From the IMG/VR virus record IMGVR_UViG_2563366951_000006: DNA of 47,886 bases; one strand, given 5' to 3'. The stretch comes from a virus. Its lineage: Duplodnaviria > Heunggongvirae > Uroviricota > Caudoviricetes. Below, piece by piece: positions 698-42,524 of the stretch. A model generated the notes under the pieces. The model saw nothing but the letters and a program-made list of their open reading frames with translations, was not told the DNA's origin and searched no databases. Position 1 is the first letter of the stretch; every line of letters starts with the position of its first letter. The translations under genes and the position numbers were made by a program.

Positions 698-1060
698 GGG
701 GCTGATTCTGGATTCGACGGGATTTGCGAAACCCAAGGTGCATGCCGAGGGGCGGTTGGCCTCGTAAAAAGCCGCAAAAAATAGTCGCAAACGACGAAAA
801 CTACGCTTTAGCAGCTTAATAACCTGCTTAGAGCCCTCTCTCCCTAGCCTCCGCTCTTAGGACGGGGATCAAGAGAGGTCAAACCCAAAAGAGATCGCGT
901 GGAAGCCCTGCCTGGGGTTGAAGCGTTAAAACTTAATCAGGCTAGTTTGTTAGTGGCGTGTCCGTCCGCAGCTGGCAAGCGAATGTAAAGACTGACTAAG
1001 CATGTAGTACCGAGGATGTAGGAATTTCGGACGCGGGTTCAACTCCCGCCAGCTCCACCA
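698..1060 (+). ncRNA. ssrA: tmRNA (SsrA), 363 nt
   Basis: Starts GGGGCTGATTCTGGATTCGACGGG; internal tag-peptide frame ANDENYALAA-stop at about 787..819; tRNA-like 3' end GGGTTCAACTCCCGCCAGCTCCACCA. Confidence 0.95.
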
Positions 1061-1065
1061 CTTTT
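1026..1065. repeat. attL core: 40-bp direct repeat (1 mismatch) of the ssrA 3' end
   Basis: ttcggacGcgggttcaactcccgccagctccaccactttt at 1026..1065 recurs at 42485..42524 with a single mismatch. Confidence 0.85.
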
Positions 1066-1182
1066 GATAGGACTGCAACCGGACAGTGGCAATAAAAACA
1101 GCCACTTACGGACACTAACCAGACAGCATGCAGACCGAGAAAAGACAAAAATATGCACGTGAAATGCACGTGCACTTTAAAA

Positions 1183-1212
1183 GAACCCCAGATTTCACGG
1201 TCTGGGTTTTTT
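1183..1212 (+). terminator. Rho-independent terminator-like hairpin downstream of ssrA
   Basis: cccaga-loop-tctggg stem followed by a T6 tract. Confidence 0.5.
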
Positions 1213-1331
1213 CTATTTGTAACTAAGGGTAACAAATTCCCCTCCCCCTTTCGCGTCCCGCTCGCCTTGACACTGTTTATTTTTACAGTAAAAATACTGT
1301 ATGCAATCACAGTGGTTTTCCGGAGGCATTT

Positions 1332-1571
1332 ATGTTCGTTGAACTGGTTTATGACAAACGCAATGTAGAGGGGCTTGAAGGGGCCAGAGAAATTATTCTG
1401 GCCGAGCTGACGAAGCGGGTGCACCAGATTTTCCCTGATGCCGAGGTGAAAGTGAAGCCGATGCAGGCAAACGGCCTGAATAGCGATGCCAGTAAAAGCG
1501 ATCGGGAAAAGCTGAACCGCATGCTGGAGGAGATGTTTGAAGAGTCGGATCATTGGTTAAACAATATTTAA
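1332..1571 (+). CDS. DinI-like protein
   Basis: 79-aa ORF with the DinI-family pattern (EL..R....FPD.E..V, C-terminal acidic segment ending DHW). Confidence 0.65.
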   Translation: MFVELVYDKRNVEGLEGAREIILAELTKRVHQIFPDAEVKVKPMQANGLNSDASKSDREKLNRMLEEMFEESDHWLNNI

Positions 1572-1665
1572 ATTCAATCTGTTAACGGCTAAGGAATATT
1601 TTTAGGAATATTTTGTTGTCATTTTTGTTGTTGATGGTACTCTTATCATTATCATCAATAACAGA

Positions 1666-2286
1666 GTGCGAGTTATGTCCCTTATCTCTAAAGAAGAAGC
1701 ATTGCTGGAACTTGAACCCTATTTCCCTCTGTTGCGAAAAGCTGTACATGCTGCATGGAACTCTTGGGTTACGGGTCCAATAGCACCTCGCATGCAGCAC
1801 AAGCGCGTCCGTGCAAATCTCGTATGGAATGATTATTTTTTCGAGATGATAAAAGAACTTTCAACAGGTGAACACAAAGGCATTAGGTTTGCAAAAATAC
1901 CTTATAATCAAGGGTTTGCAGTTAATGACAGATTCTTCATTAAGTTTAAAAAGGCAGACTCCAACTTCCTTTCCTCCAACCTTCAGACTCAATCAGCTAT
2001 GAAATATCATGACCCAGAGATTGATATGTTTGGCGGAGAAGTTCGCTTAGAGTTGCTGTATGTTTTAGACGATGATGGGATCAACATTGACAAAATTGCA
2101 ATTGTTCAAAGAAAAGACAAATTTGTCGCTTGGGCAATAGATATTGAAGGCGATAATGTTGCTGAAATTCCTCATACATTTGAACCAAGCACAACCGAGA
2201 CAGCTAAAACTGTCGCGAAAAAAGTTATCAAACCTCGCAAACATGCAAAAGAAAACGTGGTAAACAAAGATGGCACAAATTCCTGA
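1666..2286 (+). CDS. Hypothetical protein (206 aa), upstream partner of the HTH-ImmA gene
   Basis: AT-rich ORF; alternative ATG at 1675; 3' end overlaps the next ORF by 17 bp, suggesting translational coupling; no family recognised. Confidence 0.55.
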   Translation: MRVMSLISKEEALLELEPYFPLLRKAVHAAWNSWVTGPIAPRMQHKRVRANLVWNDYFFEMIKELSTGEHKGIRFAKIPYNQGFAVNDRFFIKFKKADSNFLSSNLQTQSAMKYHDPEIDMFGGEVRLELLYVLDDDGINIDKIAIVQRKDKFVAWAIDIEGDNVAEIPHTFEPSTTETAKTVAKKVIKPRKHAKENVVNKDGTNS

Positions 2287-3355
2287 ATCTCTCTCTTTGA
2301 TTAGAAATGAGATGATCGAGCTTCGCCGCAGAATGCTTGGAATCAGCCAAAAAGTTTTATCAGAAAAAGTGGGAATGTCCCAAGGAACCCTTTCGAAGAT
2401 AGAACAGGGACTTAAAGCTGTAACACCAGAACAAGCTCAGAAACTTTCTGAGGCATTATCATGCCCACTAAGTTTTTTTACGATGTCAGAACGCTTATAC
2501 GGTGGGCCAATCAGCGCGGCTCCAATGTATAGAAAAAAAGCATCTGTGGGTATAAAGGTTTTAGATCGCCTCATAGCAGAGATTAATGTACGAATAGCTC
2601 ACATTAGAAAACTTCTTCAGTTCGTTGATTTTGAACCAGAGTTTGAATTACCTTCATATGATCCTGACGACTACAACGGTGATGCGACTGAAATTGCAAG
2701 AAATACGCGAAAAAGTTGGTATATGCCCGCAGGTCCGGTGAAAAACTTGATCGAGGTTCTTGAAAGAGCTGGATGCTTAATAATCGAGTGTGACATGGAT
2801 GACACTGGCTTATCTGGGGTTAGCTACAACCTTCCAGGATTACCACCGATTATTTTCATCAACAGAAATCAGCCCCTTGACAGATATCGTTTTACACTAG
2901 CGCACGAGCTTGGCCATTTAGTCATGCATAAATCGCCCAATCCAAACATGGAGAGCGAAGCTGATGCTTTCGCAGCAGAATTTTTAATGCCTGCACGTGA
3001 CATATCTCCCTATCTTCGTGATATGAGCATTGAAAAAGCTGCAACCTTGAAGCCTTACTGGAGAACCTCAATGGCCTCCGTAATTTTCAGAGCCAAAACT
3101 TTAGGATATTTAAATCAGGGACAAAATGAATATATCTGGCGTCAGATGTCTGCACGCGGATACAGACTCAATGAACCAGTACAATTATCTCCTGATAATG
3201 AAAAGCCAACATTGTTAAAAGAGATATTTGAACACGTCAAACAAGAGCTTGATTATGACGAAAGCGAATTATCGCAAGTATTCTCAATACATTATGATGA
3301 AATAGAACAACTTTACCCTATTAACAAAAAAACTGGCTTAAGATTAGTTAAATAG
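2270..3355 (+). CDS. XRE-family HTH fused to ImmA/IrrE-type zinc metallopeptidase (COG2856-like)
   Basis: N-terminal HTH (ISQKVLSEKVGMSQGTLSKIEQG); C-terminal HEXXH motif (LAHELGHLVMH) with downstream EADAFAAEFLMP. Confidence 0.8.
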   Translation: MAQIPESLSLIRNEMIELRRRMLGISQKVLSEKVGMSQGTLSKIEQGLKAVTPEQAQKLSEALSCPLSFFTMSERLYGGPISAAPMYRKKASVGIKVLDRLIAEINVRIAHIRKLLQFVDFEPEFELPSYDPDDYNGDATEIARNTRKSWYMPAGPVKNLIEVLERAGCLIIECDMDDTGLSGVSYNLPGLPPIIFINRNQPLDRYRFTLAHELGHLVMHKSPNPNMESEADAFAAEFLMPARDISPYLRDMSIEKAATLKPYWRTSMASVIFRAKTLGYLNQGQNEYIWRQMSARGYRLNEPVQLSPDNEKPTLLKEIFEHVKQELDYDESELSQVFSIHYDEIEQLYPINKKTGLRLVK

Positions 3356-3357
3356 AA

Positions 3358-3386
3358 CCAACCCGGCCACCGCGCCGGGTTTACTT
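3358..3386. terminator. Bidirectional terminator hairpin between convergent genes
   Basis: cccggc-caccgc-gccggg stem-loop followed by a T-rich run. Confidence 0.5.
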
Positions 3387-3389
3387 TGA

Positions 3390-3695
3390 TTATTTTTCCG
3401 GCATGTTAAGCATTTGACGCAATTTTTTATTAACTTCTTTCTTCCGTCGAGTAAACGCCTCCTCAGCATCAGCCTTTCGTTCCTTGTCTCTTAGCTTGGT
3501 CGGCTCAACTTCCACTGCTAACAAAGCAGCCTGACAATCTTCTTTCGTAAACAGATAGGGTGATTTTGGCCTGTCGCTTACCCGGTAGGCTTTGAGCCTG
3601 CCTTCAAGAACCCATTTAGTCACTGTGGCCGTCGAGATACCCAGCAATTCAGCAACTTCCTTTCTCGTCATTGTAAGTCTATCCATATCATTCAA
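3390..3695 (-). CDS. Excisionase/AlpA-type HTH DNA-binding protein
   Basis: LTMTRKEVAELLGISTATVTKWVLEGRLKAYRV matches the excisionase-family HTH pattern; basic C-terminal tail. Confidence 0.65.
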   Translation of the reverse strand: MNDMDRLTMTRKEVAELLGISTATVTKWVLEGRLKAYRVSDRPKSPYLFTKEDCQAALLAVEVEPTKLRDKERKADAEEAFTRRKKEVNKKLRQMLNMPEK

Positions 3696-3737
3696 CCTAA
3701 ATCACGCCCTACGATTAAGCCTTATTGACTCAAAACG

Positions 3738-4118
3738 TTATACCCCTTTAGATTTCCATGTTTTTATCTCAAACAAAACAGCGCAATCTCCTTCGTCATT
3801 CCAAACTGCAGAATTTACCCCCCAAAAAAGAGTAAACCTTTTCCCACCCTTGTTTCTGTCCGGTATTATATTTTTACCTGGCCGCGTATATAAAATAATT
3901 TCATCACCTTTTTTAGCATCATAAGAAGGCATCCAATAAGAATGCCTTAGCTTTGACGAAATATAACCATCATCTGTATAAGTTGTGTCCTGGAGCAGGT
4001 AATATTGCAATTTGCAATCTTCAATCACGTCCAAAACCACAAACTCTTCTTTCGCATCCCCATGATTATGGATACTTCTTATGCTTACTTTCATATTAAC
4101 ACCTCGCTTTTTAATCAA
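3738..4118 (-). CDS. Hypothetical protein (126 aa)
   Basis: AT-rich ORF upstream of and co-directional with the AlpA-like gene; no recognisable motif. Confidence 0.45.
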   Translation of the reverse strand: MIKKRGVNMKVSIRSIHNHGDAKEEFVVLDVIEDCKLQYYLLQDTTYTDDGYISSKLRHSYWMPSYDAKKGDEIILYTRPGKNIIPDRNKGGKRFTLFWGVNSAVWNDEGDCAVLFEIKTWKSKGV

Positions 4119-4173
4119 TCTTAGAGAGGTATTAGCTCTGAAACAACAAGGTTTTACGTGACTGTGGTCACGA

Positions 4174-4740
4174 CTAGGTAGTTTTATTAGCTGGAAACTT
4201 CTTATAAAGAGTGCATACCGCTACATCATAAATAATTGCCACCTGCTTCCTGTTCATGCCATTCGCAATCAGTCGGCCCGCCTGGTCCCATTGTTCTTGA
4301 GTAAGCTTCGGACGCCTGCCGCCTATCCGCCCTTTCTCCCGAGCTGCAGCCAGGCCTGCCCGGGTGCGCTCAACAATCAACTCTCTTTCCATTTCCGCCA
4401 GTGCTGACATGATGTGAAATATAAAACGCCCCATTGGGCTGGAAGTGTCGATGCTGTCAGTAAGGCTCTTGAAGTGAATGCCACGTTGTCGGAGTTCGTC
4501 CACCAGCAATACCAGGTTCCTCATGCTTCGCCCGAGGCGATCCAGCTTCCAAACAACCAGCGTATCCCCCTCCTTCAGCGTTCGCAGAAGCTTTTTAAGC
4601 GCTGGCCGGTTCGCTACCGTCCCGCTCATTTTTTCCTCAAAAACCTGTTCACATCCTGCGCGTTCGAGAGCTTGCCGCTGAAGATCAGTATTTTGGTCAT
4701 TTGTTGACACCCTTACATAGCCAATTTGCATATTTTTCAC
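4174..4740 (-). CDS. Serine DNA invertase, Gin/Pin/Hin/Cin family
   Basis: MQIGYVRVSTNDQNTDLQRQAL...VWKLDRLGRSM...YDVAVCTLYKK is near-collinear with Mu Gin; catalytic Ser in the VRVSTNDQ motif. Confidence 0.92.
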   Translation of the reverse strand: MKNMQIGYVRVSTNDQNTDLQRQALERAGCEQVFEEKMSGTVANRPALKKLLRTLKEGDTLVVWKLDRLGRSMRNLVLLVDELRQRGIHFKSLTDSIDTSSPMGRFIFHIMSALAEMERELIVERTRAGLAAAREKGRIGGRRPKLTQEQWDQAGRLIANGMNRKQVAIIYDVAVCTLYKKFPANKTT

Positions 4741-4797
4741 CCAATAAATTCTGCAAAAAAATCAGGTGAAGTTATCGGCCAGGCCGCTCAAGAGCAA

Positions 4798-4821
4798 TCT
4801 ATAAAACGTCGGTTTAGGAAG
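4798..4821. other. gix/hix-like recombination site (left boundary of invertible segment)
   Basis: tctataaaacgtcggtttaggaag; inverted copy of the site at 6347..6370; resembles Mu gix TTCCTGTAAACCGAGGTTTTGGATAA. Confidence 0.6.
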
Positions 4822-4861
4822 CAGCGCCACGAAGGACGTCGGAACGGCGGCCGGAAACGTC

Positions 4862-5602
4862 ATGCAAGTGGGAGCATTTGGGCTTGGAACTATCAACGGA
4901 GACGGCCCACTGTTGGACGCTATGGACGCATTTACACCGACCTGTTTCTCCTCCCATCAAAATGACGGGATGACCCAGCTTGGGTTAACTGCAAATACCG
5001 GTATTACGTCTATAGTCGTCAATCGGGGCAGCCGACCAACCCGTATTCATCAGGCCTACATTCTAAGGCGGACGTGGTTTTCGTATTACGGTGGTTCGTC
5101 CTGGTCATATCAGGAGGCTTACACCACGGGCAATACCACAAAGTCCAGCGATGGTACCCTGAAGGCTGCGTCTCCGGTTGCGCGCATAGTGACGAGTCGG
5201 GATGCATGCCAGCGCGCTGACGTAGCCGAAGATGGTTTCTCCTGGTGCGGCTGTGGGACAGCAAACGCAGAGGCGGAGGGCATAACCCTTTCTCGCCTTG
5301 AGGCGGGCGTTTACCTGCTGACAGGTGCAGCAGGACTGGCTTCAGAGGGATGGCAGCTACTGCCACCGATGGACCCTGGTGGAATGGGAGAACTTGGCGT
5401 GGTTGAAGCTGAGCAGACGGAAAGCGGAGGCCTGACAATCCGTCTTTTCAAGCAAAAATACATCCTGAGCGGTGAAGGTGAGATCATTAAAACCAAAGGT
5501 GAACCGATGGACGTGCCGGCGAACAGTTGGATCGATGTTCGCCTGGATATGCCATCTGATTCTCTGTTTAACCAGCGGATGAATCAGGAACTTCAGCCAT
5601 AG
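4862..5602 (+). CDS. Tail-fibre variable C-terminal cassette A (inside invertible segment, currently opposite to the tail operon)
   Basis: Frame is open from the gix site (NVGLGSSATKDVG...); shares motifs with cassette B (SDGTLKAASPV, DMPSDS.FNQR). Confidence 0.55.
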   Translation: MQVGAFGLGTINGDGPLLDAMDAFTPTCFSSHQNDGMTQLGLTANTGITSIVVNRGSRPTRIHQAYILRRTWFSYYGGSSWSYQEAYTTGNTTKSSDGTLKAASPVARIVTSRDACQRADVAEDGFSWCGCGTANAEAEGITLSRLEAGVYLLTGAAGLASEGWQLLPPMDPGGMGELGVVEAEQTESGGLTIRLFKQKYILSGEGEIIKTKGEPMDVPANSWIDVRLDMPSDSLFNQRMNQELQP

Positions 5603-6221
5603 CCTTGCGCTGATTCCAGATACTGTCCTGCGGCATCTGAACACGTACAGAGACAAATTGGTCAGAAGGGATGTCTATCGGCTCGCCATCGCTGACACCC
5701 TGTAGCTCGTTCCTGGCGAACTCTGGTGCTTCAGGATGTGTGCGGTGAAAGGTTTTCACTAACACCGATCCGTCAGCATGAACCTCATAATCCAGCCATA
5801 TCAGAGGCTGCTTGTTGCGGTCGGTGGGAATATCAAAACCGCCATCAATGCCGCCCCAGGCAGCGTCAGAGTTAAGCCCTTCACATCCTTCAATCAGATA
5901 TTCACCGATGGTCAGACGGGTTACGGTGCAGCCTTCAGATTCGTCATTAGTCTGGTATGCGCCATCTGTAAACACTTTGACCACAGGCGATGCTGCTTTA
6001 ATGCTGCCATCTGATGCAACTGTAGTGTTTGCAGTCGTGTATACCTTTTTCCAAGTGTATTGGCCTCCTTGATTGTGAGTAGTCTGAATATATGCTTTTC
6101 CATCATTAGACCAAACGAACCATGAAAAAGATGGGGCACCATCATACTGCAACTGCAGCCCGACTCCTCCACCTCCGGGGGAGTTGATCGTTGATGTTGT
6201 ATACCTACCAAATCCAAGCAC
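5568..6221 (-). CDS. Tail-fibre variable C-terminal cassette B (inside invertible segment, co-directional with the tail operon)
   Basis: GTG start at 6221; same frame stays open upstream through the gix site to 6371 (KVGLGDAATRGV...); homologous to cassette A. Confidence 0.55.
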   Translation of the reverse strand: MLGFGRYTTSTINSPGGGGVGLQLQYDGAPSFSWFVWSNDGKAYIQTTHNQGGQYTWKKVYTTANTTVASDGSIKAASPVVKVFTDGAYQTNDESEGCTVTRLTIGEYLIEGCEGLNSDAAWGGIDGGFDIPTDRNKQPLIWLDYEVHADGSVLVKTFHRTHPEAPEFARNELQGVSDGEPIDIPSDQFVSVRVQMPQDSIWNQRKAMAEVPDSSAG

Positions 6222-6346
6222 ACTCGTATCTGAAAAGTTTTCAATATGTCGCGGATTTCCCAGTCCAATAGCTCCTACAGTAGGGAGAGTATTGTGGCCA
6301 ATGCCCGGAGAGATTTTATCGCTGGTTACTCCCCTTGTGGCCGCAT

Positions 6347-6370
6347 CTCCTAAACCGACCTTTAAAATAT
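6347..6370. other. gix/hix-like recombination site (right boundary of invertible segment)
   Basis: ctcctaaaccgacctttaaaatat; shares cctaaaccgac with the reverse complement of the site at 4798..4821. Confidence 0.6.
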
Positions 6371-6410
6371 TTCACGATCCGATATGCTAGGCCGGTTCCT
6401 CTTCTGCATT

Positions 6411-7547
6411 TCACCCTTTGCTATTGTTTAAATTTTCTCCACTGCTCATTTCGTCGATTTGGAGTTTCAACCCTTTTACAGCAGCAATCAGATAGCCGAT
6501 CAGCCCCATATAATCGGCAACAAGATAATCTGTTGCTTCATCATGAATAACCAGGTCGGGAATCACTAAATCGAGATCTTGCGCAAGCGCGCCAGCGGTT
6601 AATCTCTTTGAATCTGCATTCTTATAGCGGAACGTGTAACCATCAAGCGCGGCTATCTTTTCCAGAGCCTCCGCAGGCTCGATAATGTTCACTTCCTCTT
6701 TCGCGTTCCAGTCTGACGTTAGAGTAACGCCGTTCGCCTGAACTGCACCCTTCGCGTTTATCGTCCCGTTACGAGTGTTTATGAACACCGCAGGTTTCCC
6801 GGCAACCACGCCATTTACTGGCTTGTTGTATGCAGTACAGAAGCCGATTCCGTACCAACTGACAATGTTGATGTTGGACATTGCTTCGAATGAGGCTGTG
6901 TCAGTACCTGCTTCAATAGCCCCGAACCCTCCAATTGCTACCCCGGATGATGTATCACTTGCCGCTGCAGGGATACGGATAGCAGCCGATGCAAACAAAG
7001 ATTCCCCATTCACCATGAATCCACTGACAATGACATTATTTGAATCCTGAGTAGCCAAGCTTCCTAAACCGAGGTTTTTGCGAGCGTCTTCTGCCTTCGT
7101 TGCCCCGGTCCCGCCGTCAGCGATTGCAAGCGCACCATTGCTCCCTTTCTGCGCAAGTTTACCGATGCCTGGGATGGTTACGGCGGTGCCGTTGATGGTA
7201 ACTGTGATGCTTTGGTTTGCTGAGGTGGTGGCGAACGTCTCCCACGCGCCAATATTCTCGTCATATTCTTTGATGAGCTGCGACATTGCCTGGGCCAGTC
7301 CGTCGACGGAGATAATGTCTGACACCAGAATGGCGTATTTCTGGCCGCTCAGCGCCGGAGAAGCTGCAGGCGTAATCGTCATTGACGTGGCGCTATTCAC
7401 GGATGAAATCTGGAACATCTGAACCGGGTTAGACATGACAATAATCGTCTGGCCAGCGCGAACCTGGCTGGCCGGTGCAGTCCAGTTTGTACCGGAGCCG
7501 GTTGCGGTATTTCCGTTAATAGAGATAGTTCCGGTGCTATAAATCAT
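6411..7547 (-). CDS. Tail fibre protein with C-terminal intramolecular chaperone (peptidase S74-like) domain
   Basis: C-terminus SDWNAKEEVNIIEPAEALEKIAALDGYTFRYKN...YMGLIGYLIAAVKGL matches the auto-cleaving chaperone domain of phage fibres; RBS aggag upstream. Confidence 0.8.
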   Translation of the reverse strand: MIYSTGTISINGNTATGSGTNWTAPASQVRAGQTIIVMSNPVQMFQISSVNSATSMTITPAASPALSGQKYAILVSDIISVDGLAQAMSQLIKEYDENIGAWETFATTSANQSITVTINGTAVTIPGIGKLAQKGSNGALAIADGGTGATKAEDARKNLGLGSLATQDSNNVIVSGFMVNGESLFASAAIRIPAAASDTSSGVAIGGFGAIEAGTDTASFEAMSNINIVSWYGIGFCTAYNKPVNGVVAGKPAVFINTRNGTINAKGAVQANGVTLTSDWNAKEEVNIIEPAEALEKIAALDGYTFRYKNADSKRLTAGALAQDLDLVIPDLVIHDEATDYLVADYMGLIGYLIAAVKGLKLQIDEMSSGENLNNSKG

Positions 7548-7624
7548 AACAACTCCTAAATTTAGACAACATGAAGCCCGGAGAGGTATATAACCCTCAC
7601 CAGAAATAATTTCTGAATTGGTTT

Positions 7625-7971
7625 TTAATACATGTTGGGCAACGCCAGTGTTGGCATAGCTATAGTTGTATCAAATGCCATTGACCACCCACCCAAATAA
7701 TAATTGCCGACTACTTTATTCCTTTCTGCTCTGACATTCCCACCTGTCATTACAATTCCTTTATACCTAATATTTCCGTAACCACCAACGTGTCGACAGT
7801 TAGCCCCGGTATAAACAATCTGGCAAAATTCATCACCAATATTCAGGTTCGCATTGGCGATATTTATTGTCCCATCAAAAATGAATGGCTTCGTGCAAGT
7901 AAGAAGACGTTTGCGTTGACGATTGGTTTATTCAATCCATCAACTAAAATACCATGTAAACGAATTGCCAT
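7625..7971 (-). pseudogene. Side-tail-fibre (Stf)-like N-terminal fragment, apparently interrupted
   Basis: ATG at 7971 encodes MAIRLHGILVDGLNKPIVNANVFL, which resembles the lambda Stf N-terminus as I recall it (MAVKISGVLKDGTGKPVQNCTIQL); stop after 35 codons, open frame continues in another phase to 7625. Confidence 0.4.
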
Positions 7972-8052
7972 AACATTTCCCACTTTATTTTACTTACTCA
8001 ACACAACAAGTATATTAAAATTGAACCTTGTCAACAACACAAAGGAGTCCCA

Positions 8053-8283
8053 ATGAAACTCGCTCTAATTATGCTGCCATTATGTCTGTCCCTCACTGCA
8101 TGTGGTAGTGGCCTGAATACCGGTAAACCGAATTCCGGCGTTATCCCAAAACCCTTGGATTGGGATAACGGTTCTTTAATTTATGATACCGAAAAGCTTC
8201 CAATGACTGGGCAATGGTGCCATGAGATTGCTCACGAATACCGAAGAATTGGAAGCCCTTCAAACTGTGTGATTGATTATTGA
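8053..8283 (+). CDS. Small lipoprotein moron, possible Cor-like superinfection-exclusion protein
   Basis: 76 aa; signal peptide with lipobox LTAC; opposite strand to the tail genes, immediately downstream of J. Confidence 0.5.
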   Translation: MKLALIMLPLCLSLTACGSGLNTGKPNSGVIPKPLDWDNGSLIYDTEKLPMTGQWCHEIAHEYRRIGSPSNCVIDY

Positions 8284-8284
8284 A

Positions 8285-35289: not shown

Positions 35290-35396
35290 AACTCACAAAC
35301 TCCGTAAATCGAATTTAACAAAAAACCATCTCACAAATCCCTCGCACAGAACGCCGTGGTTATATCCGGCCACCAGCACACGCTTGAGGAGTATTT

Positions 35397-36380
35397 TCAT
35401 GGGCGATACCCGCCACGGTTCATGCGATCGATCGCTGACTGATTGATAAACACCTCGGCAGAGCCGTCATCAGACTTTGCGTACCACTCGTAGCGAGACT
35501 GGTCTTGTCGGGTAGGGACTTTGTTTTCCTGGGTCTCTACCAGCCACGGTTCATCGAAATGTTTATCCGGCCCGAAGAACGTCGCCGCCTGCTTGACGAA
35601 CGAAGTACCGATCTTTCCCTCAGAGGCCATGAAAGCTGCGTAGCGCTTAACCCCTTCCAGCATCGTCTCTGGTTTTACGCCCTGTTTAATACGTGCGTTC
35701 CAGGCTTTGAATGCGCTTAGCTTGTTATTTCCACCGCTACGTTTTGGGTATGCCTGCCAGGCTTCTTCAAATGCAGGAGAATAATCAGTTGAAGATTTCA
35801 CTTTCGGTGTGTCGGCTTCAGCCGATGCACCAAGATATTTATTCTCTGTATTAATCTTCTGTGTAGTCTCCTGGTAATCTACTGTATGAATGGATGCGGA
35901 ATTTCCACATGACTGCTCGTTGGTTTTCCCCATACCTGCATGCTGGTTTTCCGCATCACTGTTTGCGGAAATTCCGCATCCTTGTTTGTTGGTTTTCCCC
36001 ATACCTGCATGCTGGTTTTCGCCAAGTAGAAGTTCTTCCAAGCGCTCCTGGTTTACTCTGAAATATAATTTTGCTGGGATGCCACGTTTTGCTTCTTCCA
36101 GTACGCCACAGGAAACCAGCTTTTTACGCGCTCCCTCTTGTTCGTAACGCGTTAATCCAGTCTCTTCTTCGAGATCTGTCTGGGTTTTGTAGAACCAATT
36201 CCCTTCCATGCGGTTCTGCCAATAGACAATCTGTGACAATAGCAATGCACCTGTAATACCCACGCCAAGGCGAACGAAGGACCGTTGAAAGGCTATTGGA
36301 CGATCAACGAGCTGTAAGAAATTGCTCACTCCACAACCCTCCTGAAATAATTTTGAAACTTCCAGACAGGCTGCATGCAT
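35397..36380 (-). CDS. Replication initiation / replisome organiser protein
   Basis: N-terminal winged-helix-like region; internal tandem protein repeat ENQHAGMGKTN encoded by iteron-like DNA repeats. Confidence 0.65.
   Translation of the reverse strand: MHAACLEVSKLFQEGCGVSNFLQLVDRPIAFQRSFVRLGVGITGALLLSQIVYWQNRMEGNWFYKTQTDLEEETGLTRYEQEGARKKLVSCGVLEEAKRGIPAKLYFRVNQERLEELLLGENQHAGMGKTNKQGCGISANSDAENQHAGMGKTNEQSCGNSASIHTVDYQETTQKINTENKYLGASAEADTPKVKSSTDYSPAFEEAWQAYPKRSGGNNKLSAFKAWNARIKQGVKPETMLEGVKRYAAFMASEGKIGTSFVKQAATFFGPDKHFDEPWLVETQENKVPTRQDQSRYEWYAKSDDGSAEVFINQSAIDRMNRGGYRP
35891..36021. repeat. Iteron-like tandem direct repeats plus 15-bp palindrome (candidate origin)
   Basis: 33-bp perfect repeat gttggttttccccatacctgcatgctggttttc at about 35919 and 35989; palindrome tgcggaaattccgca at 35964..35978. 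Confidence 0.6.
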
Positions 36381-36523
36381 TCATGCGGATAATTCTGCCT
36401 GGTGAAGTACACCTGCTGTTTATCCCGATTCCAGCCGGTGACATGCACAATCACACCGCGCGGATCGCGATAATCGATATCCAATGGCTTAACTTGGTTT
36501 TCGGTAGTGATCGAGTGCGACAT
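36326..36523 (-). CDS. Hypothetical small protein (cII-position ORF)
   Basis: 65-aa ORF between the cro-like and replication genes; overlaps the annotated replication-gene start by 55 bp. Confidence 0.3.
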   Translation of the reverse strand: MSHSITTENQVKPLDIDYRDPRGVIVHVTGWNRDKQQVYFTRQNYPHECMQPVWKFQNYFRRVVE

Positions 36524-36524
36524 A

Positions 36525-36770
36525 TCACACCTCAGAACCGCTCTTGAAAACCAACTGTTCTTTTGTAATAACTGGCTTATTCACGAATGACTTTGATGCG
36601 CTCTCGATCGCCAATGCCAGTCTGGGGGAAGCATTGCGATGACCATAAGCAATGAGATTCAGGTATCCCGGAGATGTGCCTGATTTTTTAGCAAGATCTG
36701 CCCACTGCTCTTTTGTTGAGCACTTACGCCAAGCAAGTAATTGGTTGTTCATTACGGTCTCCTGTTGCAA
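36525..36770 (-). CDS. Cro-like HTH DNA-binding protein
   Basis: 81 aa; divergent from the cI-like repressor across an operator-containing intergenic region. Confidence 0.6.
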   Translation of the reverse strand: MQQETVMNNQLLAWRKCSTKEQWADLAKKSGTSPGYLNLIAYGHRNASPRLALAIESASKSFVNKPVITKEQLVFKSGSEV

Positions 36771-36863
36771 TGAATCAACTTTAGCTTTTTGCTAAATTAA
36801 ATGCAATAATCATTTAGCAGTTTGTGTATTTACCACATTGCTAAATAATGAGATTATTTTGAC
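36771..36863. promoter_or_regulatory. Right operator/promoter region between the cro-like and cI genes
   Basis: Three copies of the half-site TTGCTAAAT / ATTTAGCA at about 36790, 36813 and 36839. Confidence 0.55.
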
Positions 36864-37553
36864 ATGGACATAAAAAGCATACGCAAATCAAACCTTGAGC
36901 AGCTCATTGTTGAGTTCCTGAAGCGCGACAGACATACGACAAAAGCAGCTTTCGCAGAATTGTGCGGGATAAGCCCTGCCCAGTTGAGCCAGTTGCTTGG
37001 GGGCAATAGCCATCGAAACATAGGGGACAAAATGGCCAGAAAGATTGAACAGGCCTTGGATCGTCCGTTTGGGTGGCTGGATAGTCCACACAATGCTCCT
37101 GGCAGTATTAAAAGCGAGTTGGAGTATGTCGGATCAGTCCGTCCGGGAGCTGTACCAGTTGTAGGGGAAGCGATTCTTGGGATTGACGGAATGATCGATA
37201 TGCTAGAGATCCACGCTGGATGGCTACAAATATACAGCGCGGATAGGGATGCCTATGGGCTGAAAGTGAAGGGAGACAGCATGTGGCCACGCATACAGTC
37301 TGGAGAATATGTCGTCATAGAGCCAAACACCCAAGTTCATACAGGTGATGAGGTTTTTGTGCGAACAAAAGATGGGCATAACATGATAAAAATCATGAGT
37401 AAAACTCGCGATGGCGATTATCAATTCTCAAGTGTAAACAGTGATCACAGGCCCATCACCTTAAGTCCTGATAGCATCGAGAAAATGCATTTTGTTTCAG
37501 CTATTGTTAAGCATACGCGTTATGTTGACAATGATGAAATGCCCGCCCTGTAA
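36864..37553 (+). CDS. cI: Prophage repressor, CI-like (HTH + S24 LexA-type peptidase)
   Basis: N-terminal HTH (TKAAFAELCGISPAQLSQLL); C-terminal S24 motifs (KVKGDSMWP ... EVFVRTKDGHNMIKIM). Confidence 0.9.
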   Translation: MDIKSIRKSNLEQLIVEFLKRDRHTTKAAFAELCGISPAQLSQLLGGNSHRNIGDKMARKIEQALDRPFGWLDSPHNAPGSIKSELEYVGSVRPGAVPVVGEAILGIDGMIDMLEIHAGWLQIYSADRDAYGLKVKGDSMWPRIQSGEYVVIEPNTQVHTGDEVFVRTKDGHNMIKIMSKTRDGDYQFSSVNSDHRPITLSPDSIEKMHFVSAIVKHTRYVDNDEMPAL

Positions 37554-37659
37554 ACCCCATCTTTATCCCCCTCCAACCGACCTGATGGTCGGTTTTTTTA
37601 TGCCCACCGAAGAATAATAATAAATAATTATATTATTTATCAAATACATAAAAGAAAAA

Positions 37660-37715
37660 GTAAATAATTTAGCATTTATCATTTGCATGGCTTTTACCAT
37701 TTTGCTAAATTCACT
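37660..37715. promoter_or_regulatory. Left operator/promoter region downstream of cI
   Basis: Same half-site as an inverted pair: aatttagca at 37666 and ttgctaaat at 37702. Confidence 0.45.
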
Positions 37716-37742
37716 TCATCAGCAGACAACGGAGCCTATGAA

Positions 37743-37955
37743 ATGAATGTAGAGCAAATGCTTTCCGAGAACGGAACTGTCCACAAAATTGCGATGGATA
37801 TTGATCGTGTAATCAATGCGCTTGAGTACGCAGAATCAGATCCAGGTGTTGCATATAAACCAGCGGCACTCATTAAAATTTGTATCAATCAGTTAAGGGA
37901 TAATCTTTCTGTTCTAAACCATGAACTTGGTTATGATTGGCCGGAGAATAAATAA
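37743..37955 (+). CDS. Hypothetical early protein
   Basis: Start taken at ATG 37743 with GGAG 8 nt upstream (track ORF begins at 37683). Confidence 0.4.
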   Translation: MNVEQMLSENGTVHKIAMDIDRVINALEYAESDPGVAYKPAALIKICINQLRDNLSVLNHELGYDWPENK

Positions 37956-38378
37956 ATGAAAACTCCATTAGACATGCTTCATGATATCGTCGCTCAGATT
38001 TCCGAAGGCAATACTCTTCTGGAAATGATTTATAGAAACACCGAAGAAATGAACGAGGAAACTGATTGCGGCTTAGCCTGCCTCATTCGCTCTTTCGATA
38101 AAACCCGTGAAACAGCTTACGCATACATCGAAGAGTTAGCAAATACTGCAAAGACAGTTAACCCCCCCCCCATCGGGAATAGAGATGATATTGCCGATGA
38201 TATTTTTTATGCCACAGTCAGCGCTGCAAAACTCAGGGAACTGGCTCACGTATATAACGAATCATATTTTTCAGGAAAAGACAGTGATGACGCTGATTGC
38301 CTGATGGCATCACTTATTTTCGATAATACCATTAAGGTACATGAATTACTGAAAAGCATCGAAATAAAATTAAATTAA
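37956..38378 (+). CDS. Hypothetical early protein containing a C10 homopolymer tract
   Basis: 140-aa ORF; ten consecutive C at 38162..38171 encoding NPPPIG. Confidence 0.5.
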   Translation: MKTPLDMLHDIVAQISEGNTLLEMIYRNTEEMNEETDCGLACLIRSFDKTRETAYAYIEELANTAKTVNPPPIGNRDDIADDIFYATVSAAKLRELAHVYNESYFSGKDSDDADCLMASLIFDNTIKVHELLKSIEIKLN

Positions 38379-38447
38379 TTAATAGGTAGTTTAAATCACA
38401 CCATCCCTGGTGGGGATACGTGCAACCAAATTTCAGAGGAGATTGAA

Positions 38448-39107
38448 ATGAACCAATCTGAAATAGATAGTCTTCTTGAATCAAAAGTTTCGCGGCGTAG
38501 GCATTTAAAAAGCCTGGAGTATGGTGTTGGTCATTATGACGTAGAATTCCCCAGCACTATTATCATCGACGGAATAATGTGCCACCACAGCGCTCACCGT
38601 CGTTGGAGCGGCATGTTATCTCGCTGCTACAAACCGCACACAGAACAGTTAGAGCACAGTTACGCCGGATGTACTGTTGCCGATGAGTGGCTGCGATTCT
38701 CAAACTTTCTGGCGTTCTGGAAAGAAAACTATCGCGATGGATATGTGCTAGATAAGGACCTGCTACACCCTGGTAACAAGATATATGGTCCTGAATACTG
38801 CGTATTTGTTCCCCCAGCACTTAACTTATTTACAGGTGATCGCGCCCGTTTACGAGGGAAATACCCACAGGGTGTTATCTGGCATAAACAGTCCGCTAAG
38901 TTTCGGGCACGAATCAACGTAAACGGAAAGATTTCACACCTTGGGCTTTTCAACACCACACAGGAAGCCCACTTAGCCTGGCACACAGCCAAGATGCAAC
39001 AGGCTAAGGACTGGAAGCCCACATGTGATGAGATTCACCCACTACTACATGCAGGCCTGATGAAAAAAATAGCGGGAATGCAACAGCGATTTACTCAACC
39101 ACGTTAA
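38448..39107 (+). CDS. Hypothetical early protein, possible AP2-like DNA-binding domain
   Basis: GVIWHKQSAKFRARINVNGKISHLGLFNTTQEAHLAWHTA resembles the AP2/HNH-associated pattern. Confidence 0.5.
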   Translation: MNQSEIDSLLESKVSRRRHLKSLEYGVGHYDVEFPSTIIIDGIMCHHSAHRRWSGMLSRCYKPHTEQLEHSYAGCTVADEWLRFSNFLAFWKENYRDGYVLDKDLLHPGNKIYGPEYCVFVPPALNLFTGDRARLRGKYPQGVIWHKQSAKFRARINVNGKISHLGLFNTTQEAHLAWHTAKMQQAKDWKPTCDEIHPLLHAGLMKKIAGMQQRFTQPR

Positions 39108-39243
39108 CCAACTTTTAAATGGGTAAGTAAATGTTAATCGATAAAGCGGCATACAAAACAGCACGGCTTTTCTTCGCGACCTATGGTGAGGAATACCGCC
39201 ATATCTCTAACCTTTTCATGCGCAAAGCTTACGGGGTCTGAAT

Positions 39244-39447
39244 ATGCTCAGTAAAGACAGCTCTCTAGAAACCGCAAAAAACACAGCAGATAACCTGTAT
39301 CAATTAATGGAATTAATTAACTCCAATATTATTGATATGGATATCGAGCAAATAATTTCTCTGTCTGGCCTCTGCCTTGACTTGTCGGCTCAGGTCTCAA
39401 TGTGGATGGATTCGGAGTTTGAACGTCGTGAAAAACAACGTAATTGA
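39244..39447 (+). CDS. Hypothetical small protein
   Basis: 67-aa ORF in the early-left operon. Confidence 0.4.
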   Translation: MLSKDSSLETAKNTADNLYQLMELINSNIIDMDIEQIISLSGLCLDLSAQVSMWMDSEFERREKQRN

Positions 39448-39796
39448 AACCTACCGCCGCCGAATTTTAAAGGCAGCGTTATTACGCCACCAGCGTAAAA
39501 CGGGCAGTAACTGCCTTGTTATTAAGCTCAATAAAGGCGGTATTAACACGGTCGAGTTAACAGAGATTCTTCTCGATGGATTATTACGAAAATTCGAAAG
39601 GCTCGCGATCAGTGAGTACGGAAATGTCGAAGGTGTAAAAGCTATTAAGGGGATTTACAGCAGCTCTGTTGATGTTAATGGCAGCGGTGAATTCCTCACA
39701 AATAGCGGAAAGGAATTAATCGACGAGCTCATTTCTGAGCTGGTTGAGTTCGTCAAAAAGCAGAAACCAGTTAATGCGGAGATCGGCAATGGCTGA
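39428..39796 (+). CDS. Hypothetical protein
   Basis: Frame of track ORF 39377..39796; start taken at GTG 39428 overlapping the upstream stop. Confidence 0.35.
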   Translation: MKNNVIETYRRRILKAALLRHQRKTGSNCLVIKLNKGGINTVELTEILLDGLLRKFERLAISEYGNVEGVKAIKGIYSSSVDVNGSGEFLTNSGKELIDELISELVEFVKKQKPVNAEIGNG

Positions 39797-40043
39797 CCAA
39801 CAAACAATGCTCTATCAGGGTGTGCTGATCCCCCGCCCCGTGTTGAACGTGGATCTGCATGTCCTCCCTGATTTTACCGGGCGGGTAGTCCTGCACATCG
39901 AGAACGGGAGGGTGATATGCGACCGCCGGTTGTTCGACGACGAGCACATTTGCTCACTGGCCACATTTATCGAAATGGCGCGCGAAATGGAGCTGAGATT
40001 TGAGGAGGTAGCTGGTGGCACTTACAGCGATACGAATTCCTGA
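39792..40043 (+). CDS. Hypothetical protein
   Basis: Start at internal ATG (MADQQTMLYQG...) of track ORF 39744..40043. Confidence 0.4.
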   Translation, partial: ADQQTMLYQGVLIPRPVLNVDLHVLPDFTGRVVLHIENGRVICDRRLFDDEHICSLATFIEMAREMELRFEEVAGGTYSDTNS

Positions 40044-40236
40044 GTGGGTTCACCTCAAAGCAGCACACGTTTTAAGCCAGTTCAGAGCAAGGCGCATTCA
40101 CCCCTGCCGTATGCACGGCTCCGGTAATTTGAGCCTCAAGGTTAATCACCGCTGGCGGCTACTCTCCCGCGATGGCGGAAAGAACTGGGAAGTAATGAGT
40201 CACGAACGATACAGCAAAGTTAAGGACCGGAAATGA
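40015..40236 (+). CDS. Hypothetical protein
   Basis: 73-aa ORF, basic. Confidence 0.35.
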   Translation: MALTAIRIPEWVHLKAAHVLSQFRARRIHPCRMHGSGNLSLKVNHRWRLLSRDGGKNWEVMSHERYSKVKDRK

Positions 40237-40646
40237 ACGATAAGCGCACCGTAAGCATGATTGACCTGGCATTACAGAAACACGATACGCCAGTTGGCCC
40301 ACTGTTCGTGGCAGTACGCCACGGTCGTATCAAAAAATGCTTCACGCGAGATACGGCGATCCGCTATCTGGCTTTCTTCATGACCACCGAGGCTTTTGAG
40401 CGTTCAGGTTTTGCGCAGCGTCACCCGCGGGTGCGTATTGATCGCGATGACAGGGAAGTATGGCGAGACGGGGAAACAAAGGCTGAGTATCTGGCCGCCC
40501 ACCAGCGTTGTGTTCGCCGTCTGCGTCGCATCCTGGCGCGCAAGCGAGAAATGGAGAAATGGTGTGAGAAATGGGACGCGATGCATGACCGATTCGTTAA
40601 AGAGGTTGATGCACTGCAGGCCATCAAACCAGCAGGGGTGAAATGA
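40233..40646 (+). CDS. Hypothetical protein
   Basis: 137-aa ORF overlapping the previous stop by 4 bp. Confidence 0.5.
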   Translation: MNDKRTVSMIDLALQKHDTPVGPLFVAVRHGRIKKCFTRDTAIRYLAFFMTTEAFERSGFAQRHPRVRIDRDDREVWRDGETKAEYLAAHQRCVRRLRRILARKREMEKWCEKWDAMHDRFVKEVDALQAIKPAGVK

Positions 40647-40749
40647 TGAAGCCCTTCACTTTCAGCATCATTGTTTCCCTGCTACTGGCGGCCACCGTTA
40701 TCGGCGCGCTGATTGAATATAAATTTTTGGTGAGGTAGCGAGGCGCTCC

Positions 40750-41034
40750 ATGAATAAGCCAGTTTCAGAAATTATTAAGCGTTGGACCCGTCTGGCAACG
40801 AAGGCCAAGCAGCTGGGGCTCACCACCATCCCTGTCGACCCGGAAAACATGCTGATGCTCGTGGGAGATCTGCCAGCCAGTGAAGACTATCAGGCTGCAA
40901 TCGATTTTTTGCGCAAGAGAGCGGCCAGCGAACTTGATGGCGGTTTTAGAGCGCACCACAACGCACTTATCTATGCGGCAAATGAACTGGAAAATGCCCA
41001 GGCATTCGGGCGGGAGGTCGGTCATGAGTCTTGA
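40750..41034 (+). CDS. Hypothetical protein
   Basis: 94-aa ORF upstream of xis. Confidence 0.45.
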   Translation: MNKPVSEIIKRWTRLATKAKQLGLTTIPVDPENMLMLVGDLPASEDYQAAIDFLRKRAASELDGGFRAHHNALIYAANELENAQAFGREVGHES

Positions 41035-41233
41035 TTGCGTACCACTTTCAACCTACTGCCGGGACGCCGGAGAAACGGTTGAAGCCGTTAACAAACGGAT
41101 ACAAAGGGGGTTATGGAAAGAGGGTGTCCATGTATTAAAAGTCGATGGCGTTAAAGAACGCTGGATAGACTTAACGGAGGTTTCAAAGTGGGCAAGAAAG
41201 AACAAGGATCATTATCTCTCCCAAGAGGAGTAA
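41024..41233 (+). CDS. xis: Excisionase (Xis-like)
   Basis: ATG at 41024 with RBS gggagg; 69-aa basic protein overlapping the int start by 46 bp, as in lambda xis-int. Confidence 0.55.
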   Translation: MSLDCVPLSTYCRDAGETVEAVNKRIQRGLWKEGVHVLKVDGVKERWIDLTEVSKWARKNKDHYLSQEE

Positions 41234-42360
41234 CCATTCGCCAGCATAAAACTGGCGACACCCTGGTGATCACATTCACCTACAAGGGGGTTCTCTGCCG
41301 GGAGCCCCTTTCCAGAATGGAAGCAAACGCGCGCGGCGTGAAGTATGCCGAGCGCCTGCTGGGGGAGATACAGAATCAGATCGCCGGCGGCACATTCGAT
41401 TATGCGAAATACTTCCCCACCTCCAAAAAACTGGAGCTGTTCGGGGTAGTGAAGAAAACCAAAAATATTAAGTCCTACCTGGACGAGTATCTGAAAATCT
41501 GCCAGAACCGCAACCTTTCGCCGTCCACTATTGGCGGTTATGAAAAGTGCCTGTCTGCGCTATCTGCGCTGCACAAAATGCATGTATCGGAACTGACCCC
41601 TGCGGTCCTCAAAAACTGGATCGCCAGCAGAAAAACAAAGCTGAAAACAATCAGGAATAACCTCTCGTTTCTGCGCAGCGCCATAGATGAAGCGGTGACA
41701 GACGGCCTGCTGACTATCAACCCGGTAACCCTTGTCAGCGCGAGTCGGTACCACGTGATCGACAGCAGCCCGAATAGTGACGATTACGAAGTTGATCCGT
41801 TCACACCAGCGGAAATCAGCGCCATTTACCAGAGCTGCAGTTATCCGGAATGGGAAAACCTGTTCCGTTTCGCATTCAATACAGGTTTACGCAGCTCTGA
41901 GCTGTGTGCGTTGCGCTGGCCTGATCTCGACAATATCGCTAAAACAGCTCACGTTCAGGCGGCGAGTGTTGTTGGCGTTCTGAAAGGCACCAAAACAAAA
42001 GCCGGTACCCGTAAAGTAGAATTAAACAGCGAGGCGCTGGCCGCGCTGCAGGCGCAGAAACAATTCACTTTCATGAAAAGCGAGTTTATTTTCAGCGACC
42101 CTAAAACGGGAGAGCCCTGGGCGAACGCCGACGCAATACGAAAAAAAGCATGGGTGCCAACCCTCAAAAAAGCTGGCGTTCGATACCGTAACCCGTACCA
42201 GACCCGCCACACATTCGCCACCAGACACATTAGCCAGGGCGTAAACCTTTTCTGGCTTGCCGGGCAGATGGGGCATAAAGGGCCGGAAATGCTGTTCCGC
42301 AATTACGGTAAATACCTGGCTGAATACGACGGGAAAACCGCCATTTCAGCAGCTCTGTAG
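41188..42360 (+). CDS. int: Tyrosine integrase (prophage)
   Basis: 390 aa; C-terminal catalytic region with RHTFATRHISQG...HKGPEMLFRNYGKY (R-H-R-Y signature); adjacent to attR. Confidence 0.9.
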   Translation: MGKKEQGSLSLPRGVTIRQHKTGDTLVITFTYKGVLCREPLSRMEANARGVKYAERLLGEIQNQIAGGTFDYAKYFPTSKKLELFGVVKKTKNIKSYLDEYLKICQNRNLSPSTIGGYEKCLSALSALHKMHVSELTPAVLKNWIASRKTKLKTIRNNLSFLRSAIDEAVTDGLLTINPVTLVSASRYHVIDSSPNSDDYEVDPFTPAEISAIYQSCSYPEWENLFRFAFNTGLRSSELCALRWPDLDNIAKTAHVQAASVVGVLKGTKTKAGTRKVELNSEALAALQAQKQFTFMKSEFIFSDPKTGEPWANADAIRKKAWVPTLKKAGVRYRNPYQTRHTFATRHISQGVNLFWLAGQMGHKGPEMLFRNYGKYLAEYDGKTAISAAL

Positions 42361-42484
42361 CGTCGTGAGTATTTCAAAATGTTGGACGGAATCAGGACGT
42401 TAGAGGGACCACGATATGCACGTAAAATGCACTTGAGGCCTTTCAAAAAAGACAAAACATTAATATTCAATAGGTTAAGCATTA

Positions 42485-42524
42485 TTCGGACACGGGTTCA
42501 ACTCCCGCCAGCTCCACCACTTTT
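42485..42524. repeat. attR core: second copy of the ssrA 3'-end repeat
   Basis: ttcggacAcgggttcaactcccgccagctccaccactttt. Confidence 0.85.

Follow-up and report, generated by a model that had tools for sequence, protein, structure and literature searches.

Tandem occupation of the Escherichia coli ssrA gene by a lambdoid prophage and an island with a P4-type integrase

Integration into tRNA and transfer-messenger RNA (tmRNA) genes, with regeneration of the gene and displacement of a fragment of it, is the basis of the Islander algorithm, and the tmRNA gene was found to be the most enriched target, at which tandem arrays also occur (PMC4383910). How such arrays form has been described after Williams (2003), 'Traffic at the tmRNA gene', in the account of that study given in PMC7192596. 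The tmRNA gene, ssrA, is a common integration site in E. albertii (PMC10673567) and is listed as an integration site of Shiga toxin (Stx) phages, with the paper on CP-1639 as the reference (Creuzburg et al. 2005, cited in PMC8065619). Here we describe the E. coli smpB-ssrA locus contained in the 47,886 nucleotides (nt) of the IMG/VR virus record IMGVR_UViG_2563366951_000006, a stretch that we refer to in its entirety as the window. It carries a lambdoid prophage next to an intact ssrA gene and, directly beyond the prophage, the beginning of an island with a P4-type integrase. It is very likely that these are two independent integrative elements standing in series at a single ssrA attachment (att) site. 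The features on which this reading is based are as follows.

1..483, + strand: smpB, an open reading frame (ORF) of the chromosome that precedes ssrA; the MS 115-1 locus, which is 99.4% identical, carries the same annotation
698..1060, + strand: intact ssrA (tmRNA), from ARAGORN with the tag ANDENYALAA and from Rfam RF00023 (295.8 bits, full model)
1026..1065, + strand: left att copy (B-O-P′ junction), with the host-type G at 1033; the same junction is present in MS 115-1
1066..42484, no single strand: mosaic lambdoid prophage of 41.4 kb with all modules, from Pfam, PHROGs and annotated relatives
1066..1215, + strand: prophage P′ arm, sharing 92–97% identity with its counterparts in LMessi, MS 115-1 and phiES15
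about 1185..1214, + strand: phage-supplied intrinsic terminator from a terminator scan (−12.8 kcal/mol, z −3.25), kept in LMessi and phiES15
41024..41233, + strand: excisionase gene (xis), overlapping the start of int (phrog_2917, E 2e-40); product identical to the phiES15 excisionase at 66/68 residues (97%)
41188..42360, + strand: prophage tyrosine integrase gene (int), Pfam Arm-DNA-bind_2 and Phage_integrase
42361..42484, + strand: prophage P arm, contiguous with the P′ arm in the attP of LMessi
42485..42524, + strand: right att copy (P-O-B′ junction), a displaced ssrA 3′ fragment with the phage-type A at 42492; the island has its left boundary here

The ssrA gene of the window is identical at 363/363 positions to that of M217, a strain in which the site is unoccupied. 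Its last 35 nt, together with CTTTT, make up the 40-nt repeat TTCGGACGCGGGTTCAACTCCCGCCAGCTCCACCACTTTT, of which the copy at 1026..1065 is exact and the copy at 42485..42524 has one mismatch (G1033 versus A42492). No further copies were found in the window at up to three mismatches, and there were none in 100 shuffles. The arrangement has the features of the Islander signature: the intact tmRNA gene and the displaced fragment are in the same (+) orientation, a tyrosine integrase gene lies inside the interval with its end 124 nt before the right copy, the joined ends of the interval correspond to an attP (that of LMessi), and an unoccupied attB is found in relatives, both in the prophage-free G3/10 and in the 2,759 empty genomes described below. 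Both xis and int read towards the right copy, and the Int protein is 98.5% identical to that of LMessi and 91% identical to that of phiES15.

In LMessi, the sequence of window 42380..42524 joined to 1066..1215 is present as an uninterrupted attP, including the A variant and CTTTT, and the record of phiES15 annotates attP at the same core with the same arms. No P4-type integrase is found in the attP region of LMessi. The A of the right copy matches the LMessi attP, while the host-type G is found on the ssrA side in the window and in MS 115-1 and also in the single copy of the prophage-free G3/10. Since the host-type G is on the left and the phage-type A on the right, strand exchange would have taken place 3′ of position 1033, and because identity stops at CCA in K-12-type hosts it would be confined to 1034..1060. 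This interval, comprising the T-arm and the 3′ acceptor strand, would make the crossover region the last ~27 nt of ssrA. In MS 115-1 the right copy stops at CCA and runs into a K-12-type flank. The rebuilt ssrA gene is unchanged in sequence and presumably functional, and its downstream region and terminator are phage DNA. Terminators were found after each core copy, and the one at 1185..1214 presumably now serves the rebuilt gene.

Each of the two elements is also found without the other. In G3/10 (NZ_CP060075.1, 1223401-1248802) a single ssrA copy is followed by the island, with no prophage, and the sequence is 100% identical to window 42485..47886; the same stretch was matched at 99.6–100% in G3/10, LR536431, ECONIH5 and strain 135. 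The exact MkoA protein encoded by the island is listed in 1,568 index blocks. At 10/10 of the MkoA places examined, in genomes of 4.7–6.1 Mb, the island integrase comes directly after an intact tmRNA gene, and the prophage was found at 0/10 of them. The island-type flank adjoins ssrA in ~1,400 genomes, and the junction of P arm, core and island flank is present in 90 of 5,426 complete E. coli genomes (at least 80% covered), which among the matches listed were mainly O26 and O103 strains with ~85–90% identity.

MS 115-1 has, at its ssrA gene, a prophage whose ends and early region are near-identical to those here, and a different island, CP4-57 (intA, alpA, yfjI), comes after it. This prophage covers 14% and 74% of the two halves, with 93–96% identity over the matched parts. 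The same order, a phage and then a P4-type integrase, is seen in the Klebsiella record Kp4866-6 and in the record of phi467. The right att copy of phi467 (LN997803.1, 5170..5205) lies by an island of the same type and has lost three bases (…CCAGCTCCACTTTTTAG compared with …CCAGCTCCACCACTTTTTAG); it is another decayed displaced core copy.

The empty junction was predicted by joining the ssrA 3′ end to the K-12 sequence directly after the psaA fragment, with which CP4-57 ends on its right. An unoccupied ssrA of this kind was found in 2,759 of the 5,426 complete E. coli genomes, often at 100% identity, with the native flank ATCATGATTGG... directly following; in strain M217 the gene order is smpB-ssrA-ypjA. 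The initial annotation had proposed tandem occupation of ssrA by a lambdoid prophage and a P4-type integrase island, citing the repeat of the ssrA 3′ end and an int/xis pair that abuts the right copy from the inside. The repeat and the gene pair are both where it had placed them, and the tandem occupation is borne out in that each element was found independently. The comparison with an empty locus, by which it could be judged, gave both unoccupied genomes and a half-occupied one (G3/10, with the island only). Neither does the P4-type integrase belong to the prophage, as the free attP of LMessi is without it and the prophage of MS 115-1 ends beside CP4-57. In keeping with a tandem array, each member has its own integrase with an internal att copy between them, and the members occur separately, as the island alone, the phage alone and a similar prophage by CP4-57.

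The part of the island that falls in the window comprises three features.

about 42554..42590, + strand: island-supplied terminator, a G+C-rich hairpin with a T-run (−19.3 kcal/mol, z −4.5)
42685..43914, + strand: island integrase of the P4/CP4-57 type, 409 amino acids (aa; PF13356 Arm-DNA-bind_3, E 4e-24; PF22022 Phage_int_M, E 2e-23; PF00589 Phage_integrase, E 8e-20)
44239..47886, + strand: island cargo MkoA, the helicase of the Mokosh type I defence system (PADLOC MkoA, E 3e-269; Pfam AAA_11/AAA_12)

In prophage-free strains such as G3/10 the island hairpin is the ssrA terminator. The island integrase has full-length similarity to IntA of K-12 (49% identity over 401 aa, E 9e-138), and the label P4-type refers to this similarity and to the domain architecture. 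The two integrase genes are 325 nt apart with the att copy between them, and their products are 25% identical over 200 aa (E 9e-6), as distant homologues from different subfamilies. The hairpin and the second tyrosine integrase after the right copy had therefore been recognised correctly in the initial annotation, though to call the two integrases unrelated was slightly too strong. The window ends at the mkoA stop codon. In G3/10, mkoB lies directly downstream (L002:25392-27209, outside the window; PADLOC MkoB, E 3e-105), giving the MkoA helicase with an adjoining MkoB PLD-nuclease that defines Mokosh type I. A relaxase gene and additional, frameshifted recombinase genes are also present on the G3/10 island. 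No alpA homologue was seen in the window.

The window stops inside the island, whose far end lies beyond it. In G3/10 the island is ~23.3 kb and, along the 5.4 kb that can be compared, is identical to that of the window, as is the shared part of the ECONIH5 island. On the chromosome it stops at the point where the island of K-12 does. The K-12 island ends in a 14-nt ssrA fragment, CCGCCAGC-CCACCA, annotated as psaA. At the far end in G3/10 and ECONIH5 there is only a remnant, CGCCAGC-----CA, directly before the native flank, which was recognised in G3/10 by comparison with the psaA junction of K-12. No third copy was found in the 25 kb downstream of ssrA in G3/10 using patterns of 35, 25 and 15 nt (up to 2–3 mismatches) or 10-nt direct-repeat seeds. 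Loci from other genera with the distal DUF6387 protein have other contexts, two of them by tRNA-Leu, and no ssrA fragment. As far as relatives show, then, the third att copy, whose absence downstream would have told against the initial annotation, exists in decayed form, and this decay suggests that the island in the G3/10 lineage is no longer readily excisable.

A related motif inside both junctions had been put forward as a candidate integrase arm-type site, and the two copies are present at the positions given.

1153..1175, + strand: candidate arm-type site in the P′ arm, ATGCACGTGAAATGCACGTGCAC, with TGCAC half-sites 11 nt apart and the palindromic CACGTGCAC
42416..42438, + strand: candidate arm-type site in the P arm, ATGCACGTAAAATGCAC, 77 nt 5′ of GGGTTCAACT, at the same position in eight phage attP sequences

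The sequence ATGCACGTNAAATGCAC occurs exactly twice in the window, at 1153 and 42416, where the expectation, allowing up to two mismatches, is 0.04. The left copy begins 88 nt inward of the left repeat, and the distance from the end of the right copy to the right repeat is 53 nt. The comparison took in eight sequences of an attP or an att junction, from phages with integrases 68–100% identical to that of the window. An element of 15–17 nt lies 75–79 nt 5′ of GGTTCAACT in 8/8 of them, and the flanks of this element have diverged (mean column identity of the P arm 72%). The invariant pattern is C..AA....C, with the consensus CGTRAAR between lineage-specific pentamers. The pentamer is TGCAC in the group formed by the window, LMessi, PhiR12, phi467 and phiES15; GCGCC/GAGCC, GTAC/GATAC and GAGCC/GATCC are found in phiNP, LLS and Kp4866-6. 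In the P′ arm the element lies 93 nt 3′ of CCA, and where the half-sites of the P arm change, its own change too (TGCAC..TGCACGTGCAC compared with GATAC..GAGCCGCGGCTCC). This copy is kept in four phages, with an analogue in phiNP and LLS. On folding, the left copy forms a hairpin (−12.2 kcal/mol, z −3.8) and the right copy does not (−1.8 kcal/mol, z +1.1). A hairpin as the shared feature of the motif was accordingly ruled out; since only the left copy folds, what the two have in common is a direct repeat with 11-nt spacing.

In phage lambda, the core of attP lies between P and P′ arms that contain the arm-type Int, integration host factor (IHF) and Xis sites, and its P′1–P′3 arm-type sites are the model for our reading of the motif. 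As in an attP arm, the repeated motif is found in both arms, is distinct from the core and has a position that is conserved among related integrases. The initial assignment as a candidate arm-type site is consistent with this conservation in the eight attP sequences, and by analogy the ATGCAC..ATGCAC repeats are most likely arm-type sites to which the N-terminal domain of the phage Int would bind. A scan with the IHF consensus gave one-mismatch candidates in the P arm only, which we do not claim as sites, and none in the P′ arm.

We propose that a phage of the LMessi integrase lineage, with an attP carrying the last ~35 nt of ssrA and CTTTT, would have recombined with the ssrA 3′ end by a Campbell-type integration. 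Int, acting on core and arm sites with host bending proteins, would exchange strands in the T-arm/acceptor segment. The phage-borne copy would complete ssrA, and the P′ arm would give a replacement terminator for its transcript. The displaced ssrA fragment would stay at the int-proximal end, with the island starting directly beyond it. It would seem likely that the host carried the Mokosh island already, because the island alone is common and the exact prophage is rare. On induction, xis and int would be expressed from the early leftward operon, and Int and Xis with host factors could then recombine the two 40-nt copies, giving precise excision and restoring the arrangement of G3/10. The attB-type junction left by the prophage would end in ...CCACCACTTTTTAGTTG. 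The island integrase, for its part, would face phage P-arm DNA upstream at its left junction, and at the far one a sequence that has degenerated in relatives; that the island can excise independently is doubtful.

An alternative order, in which the phage entered an empty ssrA first and the island then entered the displaced right-hand core copy, seems unlikely. Either core of a resident element can be the target for a second element (PMC7192596), and the final structure would be identical. Against this, the island alone at ssrA is common (~1,400 genomes, with the exact MkoA in 1,568 index blocks) while the exact prophage was found in 0/5,426 complete genomes, which makes the island-first order the more parsimonious. 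Precise excision of the prophage would, however, erase the distinction, and the argument from rarity is thus not decisive. That the window instead holds one composite element, with two integrases and extending from the left ssrA copy to a distal copy beyond the window, is highly improbable. The integrase genes are only 325 nt apart and the downstream searches in relatives gave no clean third att copy, but an att copy stands exactly between the two genes, the island is found alone by ssrA (100% identical in G3/10, and also in many genera), the phage is found alone with an intact attP in LMessi, and a prophage with like ends lies beside another island in MS 115-1.

The prophage might also be a defective remnant that neither excises nor gives particles, as many E. 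coli prophages are cryptic and one tRNA of its cluster is probably decayed. We consider this improbable: all of the expected modules are long intact ORFs, the att arms are 92–97% identical to those of phages deposited as complete genomes, and both int and xis are intact, with more than 97% identity to their counterparts in such phages. Somewhat less improbable, though still not favoured, is that the ATGCAC repeats are not integrase arm sites and either bind Xis, a Fis/IHF-like factor or a regulator or work as a hairpin in RNA or DNA. Part of the left copy is palindromic, and this copy folds and lies just upstream of the phage terminator; the right copy has no hairpin, leaving the direct repeat as the shared feature. 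Lambda has its Xis sites confined to one arm, and by analogy the presence of the motif in both arms would argue against Xis. Moreover, the motif keeps a fixed position relative to the core in eight phages, and in the lineages of phiNP, LLS and Kp4866-6 a change of half-sites in one arm is accompanied by a change in the other.

Several points weigh against the reading of two independent elements in the form given here. The order of arrival is unreadable from the structure, as island-first and phage-first lead to the same product. Inducibility of the prophage is a prediction from its sequence. In the only three complete E. coli genomes that share the far end of the island, what is left of the third att copy is 9 nt, with 5 nt deleted, and the island may be unable to excise now; that it is a bounded element would appear from its relatives. 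As for the motif, the protein that binds it could be Xis or some other factor and not Int.

The remaining features of the prophage are as follows.

1332..1571, + strand: dinI-family accessory gene adjoining the P′ arm (Pfam DinI, E 2e-22)
1666..3355, + strand: two-gene RosmerTA-like cargo just inside the P′ end, a 206-aa ORF overlapping the gene for an RmrA-like protein
4174..7547, no single strand: DNA invertase and invertible tail-fibre segment, with the invertase at 4174..4740 on the − strand (phrog_125, E 5e-92)
8317..26965, − strand: head and tail morphogenesis genes (Pfam; homologous annotated region)
28741..29970, − strand: lysis cassette of holin, lysozyme and Rz-like protein (Pfam Phage_holin_3_1, Phage_lysozyme; MS 115-1 annotation)
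30779..31087, − strand: tRNA cluster with Gly-TCC, Thr-TGT and a CAT-anticodon tRNA, which is Ile in annotated relatives (ARAGORN, annotation)
32272..33108, − strand: Q-like late antiterminator (phrog_127, E 1e-100)
33418..36380, − strand: replication module of primase/helicase (33418..35289, phrog_239) and O-like initiator (35397..36380, phrog_9773)
36525..37553, divergent: immunity region with a Cro-like regulator (36525..36770, − strand) and a CI-like S24 repressor (36864..37553, + strand) (phrog_35, phrog_4, annotation)

Read from the right end, the modules follow the lambda order of int-xis, CI/Cro, replication, Q, lysis, head and tail, with accessory genes next to the att site. The morphogenesis set comprises J, I, K, L, M, tape measure, tail tube, HK97-type capsid, protease, portal and the large and small terminase subunits. 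Nucleotide similarity to the phages HK97, mEpX1 and HK446 is only mosaic, at ~90% over the tail genes. No phage record and 0/5,426 complete E. coli genomes covered either half to at least 80%, and in these comparisons the prophage is a new mosaic of familiar modules.

The RmrA-like protein (2270..3355) has helix-turn-helix (HTH) and M78-peptidase domains (PADLOC RmrA, E 3e-54; Pfam HTH_3 and Peptidase_M78), and the 206-aa ORF beside it gave no family match. The cassette looks like a RosmerTA-type defence or toxin-antitoxin pair carried as a moron. A 101-aa ORF in the same accessory region (3390..3695, − strand) has a weak match to PADLOC mad1 (E 6e-10) over its N-terminal 50 aa only, which probably reflects merely a shared HTH domain. 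The invertase, of the Pin/Gin type, adjoins tail-fibre and tail-fibre-assembly genes on both strands. The site on the left, at 4796..4836, has the opposite orientation to two on the right, at 6348..6371 and at 7045..7078; all of them share the core TCCTAAACCGA, and the segment probably works as a host-range switch with several states. In the interval from the tRNA cluster to the holin gene, a match to the small RNA family STnc100 of Rfam (71.7 bits; gathering score 47) lies at 30368..30560 (− strand), where the late-operon leader of the prophage would be expected. Rfam backs three tRNAs only in the cluster. ARAGORN in addition reports a 'tRNA-???' with a two-base anticodon between the Thr and CAT-anticodon tRNAs (30935..31008, − strand); this is below the Rfam gathering score and the same gap is without PGAP annotation in MS 115-1, and it is probably a decayed tRNA gene.

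The native flank of ssrA in unoccupied E. coli sites itself resembles a phage arm. Over the 117 nt after CCA it is identical at 105/117 positions, without gaps, to the P′ arm of the temperate phage LLS, and it is 81% identical to that of the Citrobacter phage phiNP, the stretches compared being those below.

M217, L031:6058-6174: native ssrA flank
K-12, L005:22987-23103: native ssrA flank
LLS, L034:4594-4710: P′ arm
phiNP, L012:26-142: P′ arm

The match takes in an analogue of the arm motif, GGATACGCAAAGGAGCCGCGGCTCC, and a terminator lies just beyond it in the same relative position. For the whole 154-nt arm, the alignment with phiNP scores 74, compared with −18 ± 5.7 for shuffles. There is about an even chance that the 'empty' E. 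coli flank is the fossil junction of an ancient LLS-type prophage, in which case three generations of ssrA-targeting elements, not two, would be represented; alternatively, the host flank may have been captured by a phage. A pinH invertase pseudogene is found beyond ypjA. Were the flank a fossil arm, the terminator of E. coli tmRNA would be of phage origin and the site would never be truly empty, and the arm could still affect which incoming phages integrate or excise at ssrA. This likeness is the only mildly surprising point of the locus.

For the rest, the window offers a clean and resolved example of serial occupation at the tmRNA gene that is of use for annotation and carries little weight as a discovery. 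It gives the exact boundaries of the prophage, its att sites and a likely crossover interval, and it names the defence cargo of each element: Mokosh type I for the island, and the RosmerTA-like pair for the prophage. From the comparison of attP sequences comes, in addition, a candidate consensus of the arm site for ssrA-targeting integrases with the Arm-DNA-bind_2 domain, a subfamily so far unstudied; it could aid the use of these integrases as tools.

The att region of the prophage shares its layout with that of lambda, with int directed towards attP, xis overlapping the start of int, an attP region of ~300 nt, motifs repeated in both arms and A/T-rich IHF-like elements by the core. It differs in the N-terminal domain of the integrase, which is Phage_integ_N in lambda and Arm-DNA-bind_2 here, and in the sequence of the motif. 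Because attB is inside an RNA gene, the attP of the window phage must in addition carry a gene fragment and a terminator. Closest to it in the integration module are LMessi, phi467, PhiR12 and the Cronobacter phage phiES15 of the ssrA-targeting lineage, whose Int proteins are 90–98.5% identical to that of the window and which have the same attP core, arms, arm motif and terminator. LMessi nevertheless covers only 34% of the early half, at 90% identity, and the tail genes of the window resemble those of HK97, mEpX1 and LAU1.

The island is comparable to CP4-57, the cryptic P4-like prophage of K-12 (intA, alpA, with attR as the psaA pseudogene). In both there is a P4-type integrase 3′ of ssrA that reads away from it, an element-supplied terminator, and a short ssrA fragment at the far end directly before the same native flank, which is 14 nt long in CP4-57 and 9 nt with a 5-nt gap in the G3/10 island. 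The integrases are only 49% identical, however, and the cargo of the window-type island (Mokosh, relaxase) is unrelated. A comparable pair is found at ssrA with CP-1639, the Stx1 prophage of E. coli 1639/77 (AJ304858.2, titled 'CP-1639 and chromosomal integration site'), where a lambdoid prophage lies directly beside an intA-bearing 'remnant integrative element'. The product of that intA is 82% identical to the island integrase of the window over 87% of its length. CP-1639 is cryptic, riddled with IS629 and carries stx1, whereas the window prophage has no stx, seems to be intact and is made up of another mosaic of genes. The cargo of the window island is Mokosh, and that of the element next to CP-1639 is histidine-kinase-like.

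The arrays of Williams (2003), as they are related in PMC7192596 and PMC4383910, have the same intact tDNA, displaced 3′ fragments in the same orientation and an integrase for each element, and in that account the core is restored at either end of an element, allowing a second one to insert beside the first. Nothing in the window differs in principle from published tmRNA arrays, though here the fragment of the second element lies outside the window and is decayed in relatives. The tandem of prophage and island at ssrA is thus a well-documented and ordinary arrangement that has been published already (Williams 2003; CP-1639 record).

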